Below are positions 4,445-28,391 of a stretch of DNA of 64,000 bases, one piece after another. The stretch's first letter is position 1, and each line of letters begins with the position of its first letter. The notes under the pieces were generated by a model that saw only the letters and a list, made by a program, of their open reading frames with translations, did no database searches and had not been told where the DNA came from. This DNA comes from Escherichia coli O157:H7 (GTDB lineage: Bacteria > Pseudomonadota > Gammaproteobacteria > Enterobacterales > Enterobacteriaceae). The DNA lies in the NCBI RefSeq assembly GCF_013167455.1, contig NZ_CP038328.1; one strand, written 5' to 3'. Made by a program: the position numbers and the translations under genes.

Positions 4445-4939
4445 GTGAAGATTGATGCATCCCGTCGGGGCATACTCACTGGTCGCTGGCGCAAAGCCAG
4501 TAACGGTATCCGTCCGCCCTGGTCCGGTGATGAATCTCATTTTCTGACCCATTGCACCCGCTGCGACGCCTGTATTAATGCTTGTGAAAACAACATTCTG
4601 CAACGCGGCGCGGGCGGCTATCCGAGCGTTAATTTCAAAAATAACGAGTGCAGCTTCTGTTACGCCTGCGCGCAGGCTTGCCCCGAATCGCTATTTTCTC
4701 CGCGCCACACCAGGGCCTGGGATTTGCAGTTCACCATTGGGGACGCGTGCCTGGCGTATCAGTCAGTTGAATGCCGCCGCTGTCAGGATAGCTGTGAGCC
4801 AATGGCAATTATCTTTCGCCCGACGCTCTCCGGGATCTACCAGCCGCAACTTAATAGCCAACTTTGCAACGGATGTGGAGCATGTGCAGCCAGCTGTCCG
4901 GTATCAGCCATAACTGCGGAGTATCTCCATGCACACTAA
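4445..4939 (+). CDS. napF: Ferredoxin-type protein NapF (GTG start)
   Basis: 164-aa ORF with multiple CxxCxxCxxxCP iron-sulfur motifs; first gene of nap operon. Confidence 0.9.
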   Translation: MKIDASRRGILTGRWRKASNGIRPPWSGDESHFLTHCTRCDACINACENNILQRGAGGYPSVNFKNNECSFCYACAQACPESLFSPRHTRAWDLQFTIGDACLAYQSVECRRCQDSCEPMAIIFRPTLSGIYQPQLNSQLCNGCGACAASCPVSAITAEYLHAH

Positions 4940-5192
4940 CTGGCAAGTTTGCAGCCTGGTTGTGCAGGCCAAAAGCGAACGAATTTCAGACATCAGCACC
5001 CAACTGAACGCCTTTCCCGGCTGTGAAGTTGCTGTCAGCGACGCGCCGAGCGGTCAGTTGATTGTGGTGGTGGAAGCAGAAGACAGCGAAACGCTGATCC
5101 AAACCATTGAGTCAGTACGCAACGTAGAGGGCGTGCTGGCGGTGTCGCTGGTTTATCACCAGCAGGAAGAGCAAGGTGAGGAAACACCATGA
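4929..5192 (+). CDS. napD: NapA chaperone NapD
   Basis: 87-aa ORF overlapping napF end and napA start. Confidence 0.9.
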
Positions 5193-7675
5193 AACTCAGT
5201 CGTCGTAGCTTTATGAAAGCTAACGCCGTTGCGGCCGCTGCGGCGGCTGCCGGTCTCAGCGTGCCGGGCGTTGCCCGCGCCGTTGTTGGTCAGCAGGAAG
5301 CCATTAAATGGGATAAAGCGCCGTGCCGTTTCTGCGGTACTGGTTGCGGCGTTCTGGTCGGAACGCAGCAGGGGCGTGTGGTGGCCTGTCAGGGCGACCC
5401 GGACGCACCGGTTAACCGTGGCCTGAACTGCATTAAGGGCTATTTCCTGCCCAAGATCATGTACGGTAAAGACCGTTTGACGCAGCCGCTGCTGCGTATG
5501 AAAAACGGTAAATATGACAAAGAAGGCGAATTTACCCCAATCACCTGGGATCAGGCCTTCGATGTGATGGAAGAGAAATTCAAAACCGCCCTGAAAGAAA
5601 AAGGGCCGGAATCGATCGGTATGTTCGGTTCTGGTCAGTGGACTATCTGGGAAGGTTATGCCGCGTCCAAGCTGTTTAAAGCGGGCTTCCGTTCGAACAA
5701 CATCGACCCGAATGCGCGTCACTGTATGGCGTCGGCAGTAGTTGGCTTTATGCGAACCTTTGGTATGGATGAGCCGATGGGCTGCTATGACGACATCGAG
5801 CAGGCTGACGCGTTTGTGCTGTGGGGCGCAAACATGGCGGAGATGCACCCGATCCTCTGGTCACGCATCACTAACCGTCGTCTCTCTAACCAGGACGTCA
5901 CCGTGGCGGTGCTTTCAACCTACCAGCATCGTAGCTTCGAGCTGGCGGATAACGGCATCATCTTTACGCCGCAATCTGACCTGGTGATCCTGAACTACAT
6001 CGCCAACTATATCATTCAAAACAATGCGATAAATCAGGACTTCTTCAGCAAGCACGTTAACCTGCGCAAAGGGGCGACGGACATCGGCTACGGTTTACGT
6101 CCGACCCATCCGCTGGAAAAAGCAGCGAAGAATCCGGGTTCTGACGCCTCCGAACCGATGAGCTTTGAAGATTACAAAGCCTTCGTTGCTGAGTATACGC
6201 TGGAAAAAACCGCTGAAATGACTGGCGTACCAAAAGATCAGCTGGAACAACTGGCGCAGCTGTATGCCGATCCGAACAAGAAAGTCATCTCCTACTGGAC
6301 GATGGGCTTCAACCAGCATACTCGTGGCGTGTGGGCCAACAACCTGGTCTACAACCTGCACCTGCTGACCGGCAAAATTTCCCAGCCGGGTTGCGGTCCG
6401 TTCTCCCTGACCGGGCAGCCTTCCGCGTGTGGTACTGCGCGTGAAGTGGGCACCTTTGCTCACCGTCTGCCTGCGGACATGGTGGTAACTAACGAGAAAC
6501 ATCGTGATATCTGCGAGAAGAAGTGGAATATCCCGAGCGGCACCATTCCGGCGAAAATCGGTCTGCATGCGGTAGCACAAGACCGTGCGCTGAAAGACGG
6601 CAAGCTGAATGTTTACTGGACCATGTGTACCAACAACATGCAGGCCGGGCCGAACATTAATGAAGAGCGTATGCCGGGCTGGCGCGATCCGCGCAACTTC
6701 ATCATCGTCTCCGATCCGTATCCGACAGTCAGTGCGCTGGCCGCCGACTTGATCCTGCCGACCGCAATGTGGGTAGAAAAAGAGGGGGCTTACGGTAACG
6801 CCGAACGCCGTACTCAGTTCTGGCGTCAGCAGGTACAGGCGCCAGGCGAAGCGAAATCGGACCTCTGGCAGTTAGTCCAGTTCTCCCGCCGCTTCAAAAC
6901 TGAAGAAGTATGGCCGGAAGAGCTGCTGGCGAAGAAACCGGAACTGCGTGGCAAAACGCTGTACGAAGTTCTGTATGCCACCCCCGAAGTGAGCAAATTC
7001 CCGGTATCCGAACTGGCGGAAGATCAGCTGAACGATGAATCCCGCGAGCTGGGCTTCTATCTGCAAAAAGGGCTGTTCGAAGAGTACGCATGGTTTGGTC
7101 GCGGTCACGGTCACGATCTCGCGCCGTTCGATGACTACCACAAAGCGCGCGGTCTGCGCTGGCCGGTGGTGAACGGTAAAGAAACGCAGTGGCGTTACAG
7201 CGAAGGTAACGACCCGTACGTGAAAGCGGGCGAAGGCTATAAGTTCTACGGTAAACCGGATGGTAAAGCGGTGATCTTCGCGCTGCCGTTCGAACCGGCG
7301 GCGGAAGCACCGGATGAAGAGTACGACCTGTGGCTCTCTACCGGACGCGTCCTGGAGCACTGGCACACCGGCAGTATGACTCGCCGTGTGCCGGAACTGC
7401 ACCGTGCCTTCCCGGAAGCGGTCCTGTTTATTCACCCGCTGGATGCGAAAGCGCGCGATCTGCGCCGTGGCGACAAAGTGAAAGTGGTTTCTCGCCGTGG
7501 CGAAGTGATCTCGATTGTCGAAACGCGCGGTCGTAACCGTCCGCCGCAGGGCCTGGTGTACATGCCGTTCTTCGACGCCGCACAGCTGGTTAACAAACTA
7601 ACGCTGGACGCGACCGATCCGCTCTCGAAAGAGACGGACTTCAAGAAGTGCGCGGTCAAACTGGAGAAGGTGTAA
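5189..7675 (+). CDS. napA: Periplasmic nitrate reductase catalytic subunit NapA
   Basis: 828-aa ORF; Tat signal SRRSFMK; molybdopterin oxidoreductase with N-terminal Cys cluster. Confidence 0.95.
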
Positions 7676-20275: not shown

Positions 20276-20292
20276 TTTGGTCGGCACGAGAG
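20276..20292. repeat. attL: 17-bp direct repeat TTTGGTCGGCACGAGAG, a copy of the tRNA-Pro 3' end
   Basis: Identical 17-mer at 29850-29866 overlapping the tRNA-Pro 3' end. Confidence 0.85.
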
Positions 20293-20353: not shown

Positions 20354-20377
20354 CGTATAACTAAACGTATAACTAAA
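20354..20377 (+). repeat. Two tandem CGTATAACTAAA motifs at left end (candidate integrase arm-type sites)
   Basis: Same 12-mer present four times near the right end (29665-29720). Confidence 0.5.
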
Positions 20378-26385: not shown

Positions 26386-26935
26386 GGCACACCCCCTGAC
26401 GAATACGGGCGGCGAATACAGCAACACAACCGGACGGGCAACGGCTACGCGCTTCGCGTTCCGTCCAGGCGGTTACGTGGATGATTTGATGTTCTGACGC
26501 GCCAAAGATGATAAAGCGCCAGAGAAAGGCGGTTTGAGAATGTACAAGGGTAGGGATAGTAGCCATGTTGGCAGCCTCCTCAGTGTGGTTAAGATAACCG
26601 CCACCGGAAACGCCAATTTCGCTGGTGGCGGACTGTACAGGGTTGGCGTAACCGGACACTGAAGAAACCGGCGCGGATTGCTCCGCCCCCGTACAGCCCA
26701 CCATTGATAAGGTGTGACTATGCGGCACAAAAAAACACGCGGGGCGCGTGTTATGCGCTTCAGTTTTGCCCAGGACGCCAATCCCGGCACCCGTTTTATG
26801 AGGTGCGCGGGAATCATAGCTATTTTCGACACTGGCGATCAACTGGTTTTTTTCTCCGATATTCAGGGCCAGAAAACGCCACACAAAGGCCGTTTGTGTG
26901 TGTACAAGGTGTGGTATATGATTTACGGCAACCAT
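26378..26935 (-). CDS. Hypothetical protein with internal tandem duplication (possible Ash/Icd-like small-protein family); may be one 185-aa ORF or two in-frame cistrons
   Basis: AGGAG RBS before ATG at 26935; motif IPxLVHxQTAFxWRF occurs twice (N-terminus and at the internal Met at 26566, preceded by GAGGAGG); family name is an unverified recollection. Confidence 0.45.
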   Translation of the reverse strand: MVAVNHIPHLVHTQTAFVWRFLALNIGEKNQLIASVENSYDSRAPHKTGAGIGVLGKTEAHNTRPACFFVPHSHTLSMVGCTGAEQSAPVSSVSGYANPVQSATSEIGVSGGGYLNHTEEAANMATIPTLVHSQTAFLWRFIIFGASEHQIIHVTAWTEREARSRCPSGCVAVFAARIRQGVCHA

Positions 26936-27008: not shown

Positions 27009-27026
27009 ATCGATTACCTTGATAAA

Positions 27027-27108
27027 GGTGTCAGCCACTATATTAGTAACAGGTGTCAGCCACGTCAATAGTGTTTTTCCGTTTTCTTGTGTGTATACTG
27101 TCAGCCAC
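27027..27108. promoter_or_regulatory. Divergent promoter region with three GTCAGCCAC operator-like repeats
   Basis: GGTGTCAGCCAC at 27027-27038 and 27052-27063, TGTCAGCCAC at 27099-27108 adjacent to a TATACT -10-like hexamer. Confidence 0.55.
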
Positions 27109-27129: not shown

Positions 27130-27309
27130 ATGGCAACAAAAGCAGTTAATGCAAAATCCAAAAAGCTTGAGGCTCGAGTACCACACGCAATAGCTGATGC
27201 TGTAGAAAATTTAAAGGAAGATGGCGAAAGTACAGGGCAATTTATCGTTTCGGCACTTGAAGGCGAGATCAAACGCCGCCAGCGCCGCAAGGCCAAAGAA
27301 TCAGAATAA
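27130..27309 (+). CDS. Small ribbon-helix-helix-like DNA-binding protein (candidate island repressor)
   Basis: 59-aa ORF with AGGAAA RBS; predicted beta-strand/helix/helix pattern typical of Arc/CopG-type proteins; divergent from replication operon. Confidence 0.5.
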   Translation: MATKAVNAKSKKLEARVPHAIADAVENLKEDGESTGQFIVSALEGEIKRRQRRKAKESE

Positions 27310-27688: not shown

Positions 27689-27895
27689 TTAAGCAGCCGT
27701 TCCGCGTGCTTCCTCTTCGCGTTCTTTCTGCCAGGACAACACATCATCCTCATACCATCCGCGACGGCGTAAACCAACGCGAAAACCCTGCGGAAATTCT
27801 CCGGCGTTGATCATGCTTTGCAGCGTGCTGTCTGCCTTGATGTGGATAATTTTTTTTACTTCCTGGCGAAAGATAATTTTTCTGATTGCTTCCAT
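27689..27895 (-). CDS. alpA: AlpA-family phage regulatory protein / excisionase-like HTH
   Basis: 68-aa ORF; motif STLQSMINAGEFPQGFRVGLRRRGWYEDDVLSW resembles AlpA. Confidence 0.75.
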   Translation of the reverse strand: MEAIRKIIFRQEVKKIIHIKADSTLQSMINAGEFPQGFRVGLRRRGWYEDDVLSWQKEREEEARGTAA

Positions 27896-27912: not shown

Positions 27913-27930
27913 ATCCGGTGTATTCCGGTG
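27913..27930. promoter_or_regulatory. Two TCCGGTG motifs upstream of alpA (same motif repeated upstream of int)
   Basis: aATCCGGTGtaTTCCGGTGa; the same heptamer occurs about 5 times at 29743-29844. Confidence 0.4.
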
Positions 27931-28033
27931 ACAAATACGGTAAATCATCGGATATGGGTAAAAACAGTTCCCACCGTTTTTAAACGGTATACACCGTTTT
28001 TTATATTGATGATTTGAAATGGAATTATAAAAA

Positions 28034-28060
28034 AAGCGGCATTTCTGCCGCTTCCAGGAT
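28034..28060 (-). terminator. Intrinsic terminator after the 83-aa ORF
   Basis: Minus-strand GGAAGCGGCAGAAATGCCGC followed by TTTTTTT. Confidence 0.6.
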
Positions 28061-28062
28061 TG

Positions 28063-28314
28063 TTACCGCCATTTTTTGGGCCTGCCTCCGATCTTCATAG
28101 ATGCCGGACGTACGACCTTATCAATACTTACCGCCAGATTTCTGGAAGCGCCACGGGATACCAGAAAATCTACTACCTGTTTTTTTGATGGGGCCGTCGT
28201 TCTGTCCTCCGGATCGTAGGTTGACCAAAATTCATGCTGAACCATCAGGGCCAGTTGCAGCCCGTCGCAATTGCATCTGATATTTTTTTGCATCTTAACG
28301 GTTTCATGTTTCAC
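28063..28314 (-). CDS. Hypothetical 83-aa protein between int and alpA (CxC motif, basic C-terminus)
   Basis: ORF only. Confidence 0.4.
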   Translation of the reverse strand: MKHETVKMQKNIRCNCDGLQLALMVQHEFWSTYDPEDRTTAPSKKQVVDFLVSRGASRNLAVSIDKVVRPASMKIGGRPKKWR

Positions 28315-28391
28315 GGCCTTGTCGTTAAATTTGATGCAATTATACGACGGTTTTACATGGTTTTCGTAGTTTTTACTGGTTTTCTGTACAG

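Follow-up and report, generated by a model that had tools for sequence, protein, structure and literature searches.

In Gram-negative phage-inducible chromosomal islands (PICIs), alpA is induced only by the helper phage and AlpA activates its own promoter; no global repressor of these islands is known (PMC6092414; PMC11773190), and neither is an equivalent of Stl, the master repressor of the Staphylococcus aureus pathogenicity islands (SaPIs) (PMC6092414). Here, we describe a small gene, X, in a 64,000-nucleotide stretch of Escherichia coli O157:H7 (contig NZ_CP038328.1; hereafter, the window), where it separates the genes for a P4-type tyrosine integrase (int) and an AlpA/Vis-type helix-turn-helix (HTH) regulator (alpA). 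We find that X is a genuine gene that has been kept by selection, and we consider its product a candidate DNA-binding regulator of alpA.

Several described systems resemble X in part. Proteins of the AlpA/P4 Vis type (PF05930, Phage_AlpA; PF12728, HTH_17) are, like X, small, basic, and encoded next to a P4-type integrase in the regulatory/recombination module of a satellite, and they share with X a predicted helical, DNA-binding-like fold. X differs in that it matches neither PF05930 nor PF12728 and accompanies a true AlpA in every locus instead of replacing it; the AlpA/Vis fold is a winged-helix, MerR-like one, whereas X is predicted to have a three-helix core followed by a C-terminal Gly-Arg-Pro (G-R-P) tail. 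The SaPI master repressors Stl and Rpr, like X, have their genes beside int in a phage-inducible island and 5' of an activator/lytic module, and the long forms of X combine one conserved domain with highly variable parts, as expected of repressors that sense different helper proteins. Stl, however, has no homology to X, is the larger protein, and has a divergently transcribed gene; X is codirectional and has its own terminator, and repression by X is hypothetical.

The tail of X, GGRPKK(W), has the same Gly-Arg-Pro with Lys/Arg flanks as the AT-hook (R-G-R-P in HMGA) and the minor-groove arm of Hin/Gin (G-R-P-R). The core reads G-G-R-P in X and T-G-P-R-K in many relatives rather than R-G-R-P, and the Hin arm precedes its HTH, whereas the X tail follows the HTH-like part; minor-groove binding by X is a hypothetical property. 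Recombination directionality factors (RDFs) of the lambda Xis type, which have a folded core and a disordered C-terminal tail that contacts Int, are similar to X in size, charge, layout, and proximity to int, but they show no sequence or significant structural similarity to X, and no candidate X sites were found in the att arms. Overall, the closest analogues of X in mode of action would be the small HTH regulators found in the switch regions of mobile elements; in position and possible role, X resembles SaPI Stl, while belonging neither to the Stl family nor to that of AlpA, Vis, or Xis.

X is a genuine gene under purifying selection

The sequence-only reading of the window had noted an unannotated 83-aa open reading frame (ORF) at 28063 to 28314. 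A maximal ORF of this extent (minus strand, GTG start, 83 codons) is present and does lie between a P4-type integrase gene upstream and an AlpA-like gene downstream, but the protein itself is 76 aa long and starts at a conserved ATG. Nor is the gene unannotated, since the identical sequence is listed in RefSeq as WP_001171357.1, “hypothetical protein.” The three genes are placed as follows:

28063-28293, minus strand: gene X, 76 aa and 8.7 kDa (MQKNIRCNCDG...GGRPKKWR), with the ATG at 28293 and the end of the stop codon at 28063
28392-29633/29651, minus strand: int, P4-type tyrosine integrase, 413 aa from the RefSeq ATG, upstream partner of X
27689-27895, minus strand: alpA, AlpA/Vis-type HTH regulator, 68 aa, downstream partner of X

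A gap of 98 nt separates X from int, which lies upstream on the same strand. Start sites were compared in nine aligned E. coli variants with 71 to 100% DNA identity. The GTG at 28314 is replaced by TTG or GAA in related islands and, for this lack of conservation, was ruled out as the start. Across variants, the ATG at 28293 is kept, except in one lineage that has an insertion bearing an AAGGAG-N8-GTG start. Because the ATG is conserved, the GTG is not, and all database homologues are 75 to 80 aa long, we take X to be 76 and not 83 aa.

Selection was analyzed with 31 distinct nucleotide alleles of a 64-codon core, drawn from 62 E. coli copies. Among 124 allele pairs with a synonymous divergence (dS) of >0.2, the mean dS is 0.82 and the nonsynonymous divergence (dN) is 0.063, a dN/dS ratio of ∼0.08, and more than 15 alleles that differ synonymously encode one and the same protein. 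Variable alignment columns number 17, 9, and 42 at codon positions 1, 2, and 3, respectively. The X frame remains open upstream all the way back to the int stop codon, and indels in two lineages are multiples of 3. In this open stretch 5' of the X start, variable sites show no codon periodicity (6/6/4). A fusion of Int to X by −1 frameshifting was considered and rejected: the overlap lacks a slippery heptamer, and the upstream sites are aperiodic, as opposed to those in X. Since both periodicity and a slippery site are missing, the stretch between the int stop codon and the X start is noncoding.

The gene is intact in ∼60 of the 62 E. coli copies. One frameshifted copy is altered in an A7 run (giving TAPSKNR and a stop; L072), and in a 90-aa protein, P0049, an in-frame deletion joins the N-terminal half of X to the C-terminal half of AlpA. 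The source record of P0049 is labeled Cooperia oncophora and is probably bacterial contamination. Truncated or fused variants are single-member database entries. The sequence-only reading had named absence or disruption of the ORF in related islands as the finding that would count against it; across ∼60 loci, disrupted copies are rare. No RNA family in Rfam maps to the position of X. We conclude that X is a genuine protein gene under strong purifying selection.

The int-X-alpA module and the X domain family

The strongest functional clue to X is synteny. In 68 of 74 copies, an AlpA-type ORF lies directly downstream of X on the same strand, at a median gap of 168 bp. Three of the six exceptions are E. 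coli loci whose DNA is colinear but whose alpA carries small indels, and a fourth is at a contig end. In the last two, L010 and L012, manual inspection identified a divergent excisionase/AlpA-like HTH gene in the alpA position. The gene orders at individual loci are as follows:

Serratia sp. M24T3 (L009): P4-type int, 241-aa X, alpA
L073: int, an ORF, X, alpA, antirepressor-like gene
L011: int, an ORF, X, alpA, with a primase-like gene further downstream
L010: int, X, HTH gene, replication protein gene
L013: X, AlpA, Toprim/AAA_25 primase-helicase
L014: int, two genes plus an insertion sequence, X, AlpA, three small ORFs, Prim-Pol
L007 and L008: X, AlpA

Judged by these gene orders, X is the conserved, but not universal, middle gene of an int-X-alpA(-primase) backbone that extends across genera. 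The L012 locus (Burkholderiaceae) has two peculiarities. At 4540 to 5222, a 79-aa ORF with the X domain is preceded by a 198-aa ORF that is in another frame and has an AlpA/MerR-like N terminus; this region is probably a frameshifted or misassembled long-form X. A Gp49/HI1420 toxin-antitoxin pair lies between int and X.

Within E. coli, a 901-bp query (running from the 3' end of int through X and alpA to slightly beyond alpA) was covered to at least 80% in 372 of 5,426 complete genomes. This lineage is thus found in ∼7% of complete E. coli genomes, including enterohemorrhagic strains of the O26, O103, and O111 groups and Nissle 1917, which carries the int-X-alpA module. The module is at proL in every E. 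coli locus examined. Beyond the module, the islands have different replication and packaging genes, and X is highly conserved while the neighboring cargo varies.

A profile search of 1.84 billion representative proteins returned 452 matches with an E value of <1e-3, of which 25 had an E value of <1e-10. The top match, P0012 (2,552 aa), was discarded as spurious repeats; its 27 matching stretches are each insignificant and all fall within profile positions 36 to 54. In almost all matches, the X domain (∼65 aa) forms the extreme C terminus of a protein of 190 to 270 aa, with the consensus ..L..L..A...FWSTYDP.D..TAP....V..WL...G.S...A.A.D.ILRP.....GGRP/TGPRK. Stand-alone short forms of 56 to 91 aa occur outside E. 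coli as well. The N termini of the long forms vary: a frequent type starts DLSHW..V.EFT.EQAALLLAGIDP, others are AlpA/MerR-like, and a few contain hydrophobic segments that look membrane spanning. When 16 long forms were scanned (10 against Pfam and 6 against PHROGs and NCBIfam), only subthreshold, spurious-looking matches were obtained. A model of the 241-aa Serratia homologue has a well-folded N-terminal domain (residues 1 to 125; predicted local distance difference test [pLDDT] score, >90), a disordered linker (residues 135 to 173), and the same three-helix C-terminal domain. A profile scan of genome contigs with a narrower alignment yielded three loci. No match to X was found by tblastn in 50,697 phage records, and P4 presumably lacks X, provided that P4 is in the phage collection searched.

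In the AlphaFold2 model of X, built from the E. coli alignment, the core has a pLDDT of ∼90 and three helices (residues 18 to 30, 44 to 53, and 58 to 68, in the numbering of the 83-aa ORF), while the N terminus and the C-terminal tail are disordered (tail pLDDT, ∼50 to 60). A four-residue turn with an invariant Gly links helices 2 and 3, and we regard this pair as HTH-like in the model; the invariant W..YDP.D..TAP loop joins helices 1 and 2. The isoelectric point is 10.0 for the whole protein and 12 for the tail, VRPASMKIGGRPKKWR. As the sequence-only reading had remarked, the C terminus is basic (GGRPKKWR), and it is nearly invariant among relatives: G76, G77, R78, and P79 (in KIGGRPKKWR) do not vary in the E. 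coli family, and the motif is looser in the wider family, where GGRP, KGRP, TGPRK, and TGRRP are seen. With its G-R-P core and basic flanks in a disordered segment, the GGRPKK tail resembles an AT-hook without having the canonical core, RGRP. The CNCDG motif fared differently. Its letters are present, but they belong to a variable N terminus (the first ∼10 residues differ among homologues and are modeled with low confidence), and homologues have S, F, T, H, N, or A in place of both cysteines, C14 and C16; a metal-binding or Cys motif is therefore ruled out.

Searches against known families returned little. Pfam gave no family for X, just an SfiI match with an E value of 0.054 that was judged spurious; PHROGs and NCBIfam gave zero families, and PADLOC gave zero for both X and the 241-aa homologue. 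X also failed to match PF05930, PF12728, or the PHROG excisionase families, whereas the neighboring AlpA does match. Foldseek found no significant similarity among BFVD viral models (E > 0.9), and the best hit of a profile search against Protein Data Bank sequences, at an E value of 0.49, is no match. A literature search found no description of the family. Homology and structure prediction, two of the checks proposed in the sequence-only reading, thus provided >450 relatives and a three-helix core but neither a curated family nor a solved or viral fold. By these searches, the X domain family has more than 450 members, is uncurated in Pfam, PHROGs, and NCBIfam, and is newly defined here. The modeled fold is compatible with a small DNA-binding domain and matches no known family. 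Whatever the function of X, a domain family of this size at a fixed position should be useful for annotation and for satellite-finding tools.

Expression signals, DNA repeats, and a candidate role in alpA control

The DNA around X carries putative expression signals for X and three classes of repeats:

28339-28344, minus strand: perfect TATAAT, −10 element of the putative X promoter, 45 nt upstream of the ATG
28025-28055, minus strand: rho-independent terminator of X found by the terminator scan, GGAAGCGGCAGAAATGCCGCTTTT and then TTTATAAT
27960-28001: two tandem 20-bp imperfect palindromes, AAAACNGT-N4-ACNGTTTT, with centers 20 bp apart, between the X terminator and alpA
27914-27930, minus strand: two CACCGGA boxes with 10-bp spacing, just 5' of the alpA start
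29818-29844 and 29744-29750: three CACCGGA boxes with 10-bp phasing at the att core, and one further box
20354-20376: two copies of the 11-bp boxes CGTATAACTAA / TTAGTTATACG in the attR arm
29697-29719 and 29666-29690: two 11-bp boxes of the same kind and two inverted ones, forming a palindromic array upstream of int

The promoter block CC(G/A)TCGTATAAT is invariant in 9 of 9 aligned E. coli variants though its flanks diverge. The strong intrinsic terminator confirms the sequence-only reading on this point: its stem (28055 to 28032) and T-run begin 8 nt past the X stop codon. A divergent lineage has another hairpin (ATAGCGGCC..GGTCGCTAT) and a T-run at the same place, so the terminator is conserved as a structure, not as a sequence. 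It insulates alpA from transcription of int and X. With its own TATAAT and its own terminator, X would be a separate unit between int and alpA, and it appears to be transcribed from its own promoter, probably constitutively. Directly 5' of the TATAAT, at 28345 to 28385 on the minus strand, are four AAAAC tracts with ∼10-bp spacing (GAAAACCAGT AAAAACTACG AAAACCATGT AAAACCGTCG), a phasing typical of bent, UP-element-like DNA. The last AAAAC unit resembles an operator half-site, and the invariant CGTATAAT upstream of X has its first 7 nt in common with the 11-bp box CGTATAACTAA.

The module thus has three repeat classes and three proteins. The CGTATAACTAA boxes are likely arm-type sites of Int, because they are present on both att arms and covary with the Int lineage: in a divergent Int lineage, all four int-proximal boxes show the same T-to-C change. 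L004 (NZ_CP169309.1) is a natural recombinant with respect to the window and L015, with a breakpoint near the int 3' end; it combines Int and att-arm boxes of the window type with X and alpA of the other lineage. This recombinant island could serve to assign DNA motifs to proteins. CACCGGA occurs 16 times in the window, compared to 7.35 expected, and none of 100 shuffles reached 16. Since these boxes are found on one att arm and at the alpA promoter, as expected of an autoregulating RDF, they are candidate AlpA sites and would link excision to autoregulation.

With the other two classes given to Int and AlpA, the tandem palindromes were assigned to X by elimination and are candidate operators for it. 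Only two sites with 0 or 1 mismatch to the palindrome motif exist in the 64 kb, and the four half-sites lie inside 45 bp; both att arms lack the motif even when three mismatches are allowed. The palindromes lie at the alpA promoter, ∼1.85 kb from the att core, and are flanked by A-tracts. They are conserved in both E. coli X lineages and are kept between lineages that are ∼27% apart in DNA, better than the flanking coding DNA. AAAC(N)GT-type half-sites also follow X in Serratia L009 (3 in 245 bp; P ∼ 0.0015) and metagenomic L007 (2 in 129 bp; P ∼ 0.006), which have closely related X domains and an AlpA of a different sequence type; none are found in the 441-bp int-alpA gap of EcCIMP1, a characterized PICI that lacks X and has the same AlpA type as L007 and L009. 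Downstream of more distant X proteins (L011 and L014) are other paired repeats, ∼23 bp apart.

It is quite possible, though somewhat short of probable, that X is a sequence-specific DNA-binding regulator of alpA. In the mechanism that we propose, X would bind DNA sequence specifically, probably as a dimer; its HTH would contact the ACNGT cores of the palindromes in the major groove, and its G-R-P tail the flanking A-tracts. X would thereby adjust the expression of alpA, which is the master activator of these islands and probably also their excision factor. Of the two signs, repression while the island is integrated is more likely, because X appears to be constitutive and alpA is silent until helper induction. 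That X binds DNA, where it binds, and in which direction it regulates are all inferred, and the evidence is circumstantial. X is, nevertheless, a concrete candidate for the alpA control point in one large island lineage, since it is conserved, constitutively placed, and DNA-binding-like and is followed directly by alpA, from which paired operator-like palindromes separate it. A bolder proposal makes X the missing helper-responsive repressor that keeps alpA silent, and with it a widespread, previously unrecognized third component of Int-AlpA modules in proteobacterial satellites and islands, the long-form N termini acting as helper-specific sensors; this we consider distinctly improbable. If X does silence alpA until helper induction, it would be the functional counterpart of SaPI Stl in Gram-negative PICIs; if it is merely an ordinary small regulator, the result is a routine improvement in annotation.

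Several observations weigh against a role of X in alpA control. The −35 element of the putative promoter is poor. EcCIMP1 has no X homologue in its int-alpA gap, so X is dispensable for the PICI lifestyle in general, and the design of an EcCICFT073 reporter suggests that int and alpA are adjacent there too (PMC6092414). A small gene, EcCIMP1_002, has been reported between int and alpA of EcCIMP1 (PMC11773190); it was ruled out as a counterpart of X, being a different gene in a gap without an X homologue. The C4/isrK RNA immunity region of our island could provide repression without a protein repressor. The motifs were assigned to proteins by elimination, and the palindromes could instead be bound by a factor of the host or the helper phage. 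Because the half-site pattern was derived from the window, its enrichment there is circular, and independent support comes from three small loci. Finally, many long forms have an AlpA/MerR-like N terminus, which could be the part that binds DNA while the X domain does something else, and the most invariant residues of the domain are in the helix 1-2 loop, a possible protein-binding surface.

The last two points are also arguments for viewing the X domain as a protein-protein module, with AlpA, Int, the primase, or a helper-phage or host protein as its partner, and not as a DNA binder. The most invariant residues (W, YDP, D, and TAP) are located outside the putative recognition helix. In this view, the long-form N termini would bind DNA or sense, and the E. 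coli short form would be a free modulator, for example, an anti-activator of AlpA; strict adjacency to alpA fits such a partnership. However, the conserved basic G-R-P tail and the helix pair with its Gly turn are typical of DNA binders, and paired repeats directly follow X in many loci; taken as a whole, this explanation seems unlikely but deserves to be kept in mind. Less can be said for X as an RDF or an architectural Int cofactor whose basic tail binds att-arm DNA or Int and biases the direction of recombination. X is small and basic, immediately downstream of int, and in the same orientation across genera, and its layout of a folded DNA-binding-like core plus a disordered tail resembles that of lambda Xis. 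However, X matches no excisionase, AlpA, or HTH_17 family, and every X locus already has AlpA, a homologue of Vis; in P4, the AlpA/Vis family supplies the RDF. The CACCGGA boxes near the att core are found again at alpA, as would fit AlpA, and no site attributable to X is found in attL or attR. Related PICIs, moreover, excise with int and alpA alone (PMC11773190; PMC6092414). An RDF or Int cofactor is therefore a rather poor prospect. The sequence-only reading, which had offered “RDF or small accessory protein,” is upheld in its second half, in that X is the third member of an int-X-alpA module and adjoins AlpA in most copies; its first half finds no support in the family searches, in a module already provided with an AlpA/Vis-type protein, or in att arms that lack the palindromes.

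Two further explanations were considered. As cargo directed at the host or phage, X could act as a nucleoid-associated protein with affinity for AT-rich DNA, or it could interfere with the helper phage. An AT-hook-like tail would suit low-specificity minor-groove binding of AT-rich DNA, some functional PICIs lack X, and satellites often have accessory genes near int. Against this stand the lack of a PADLOC match, the conservation of X next to variable cargo, and its fixed int-alpA position across Gamma- and Betaproteobacteria-like loci, which is no variable hotspot; we consider a cargo function very unlikely. We can effectively exclude that X is a nonfunctional remnant (the C-terminal stump left by a longer ancestral gene) or an ORF that arose by chance. 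Relatives are mostly 190 to 270 aa long and E. coli X corresponds to their C-terminal domain alone, with a frame that is open upstream as far as int, as a remnant would have it. However, the low dN/dS ratio and many synonymous alleles of one protein, the conserved start codon, TATAAT, and terminator, the lack of codon-position bias in the upstream stretch, the stand-alone short forms in other taxa, and the lack of an Rfam family at this position all speak for a functional protein.

The island around X

The island that carries X is ∼9.6 kb long, inserted at the tRNA-Pro gene (proL) on the E. coli chromosome, and bounded by 17-bp direct repeats. Its edges fall between yejO and yejM, and the neighbors of tRNA-Pro are yejM, yejL, and yejK. 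The landmarks at its edges, together with a divergent gene inside it, are as follows:

29850-29866, strand not applicable: attL core, TTTGGTCGGCACGAGAG, a 17-bp repeat at the 3' end of tRNA-Pro(ggg)
20276-20292: attR core, TTTGGTCGGCACGAGAG, direct repeat of the attL core at the other island edge
29852-29928, minus strand: tRNA-Pro(ggg), whose 3' end carries the attL core
27131-27309, plus strand: YlcI/YnfO-family gene

In identical or near-identical islands, RefSeq lists genes for the integrase, a 76-aa hypothetical protein, an HTH/AlpA-family regulator, a YlcI/YnfO-family protein, an Icd-like protein, DUF4222, a DNA primase or RepA helicase, the terminase small subunit, and the major capsid protein. 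With int, alpA, a primase, a few packaging genes, a length of ∼10 kb, and att repeats at a tRNA gene, the island is, by its gene content, a PICI/P4-like phage satellite. The integrase contains the Pfam domains PF13356 (Arm-DNA-bind_3), PF22022 (Phage_int_M), and PF00589 (Phage_integrase). The alpA product scores 17.9 bits against PF05930, under the 21-bit cutoff; it matches PHROG 2790/66, “excisionase and transcriptional regulator,” and is named “helix-turn-helix / AlpA family transcriptional regulator” in RefSeq.

Rfam identified a C4 antisense RNA (RF01695; 77.6 bits) at 26621 to 26708 and isrK (RF01394; 66 bits) at 26730 to 26806, both on the minus strand, plus a weak a1/b1 target match. 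From these matches, the region at 26621 to 26806 is a predicted P1/P4-type RNA immunity cassette, just upstream of the Icd-like genes of the island. Repeats of AGGTGTCAGCCAC are present at 27026 to 27072 (and at ∼27099), in the divergent region between a minus-strand promoter-like site (27068 to 27040) and the YlcI/YnfO-family gene, and look like operators of the main operon switch.

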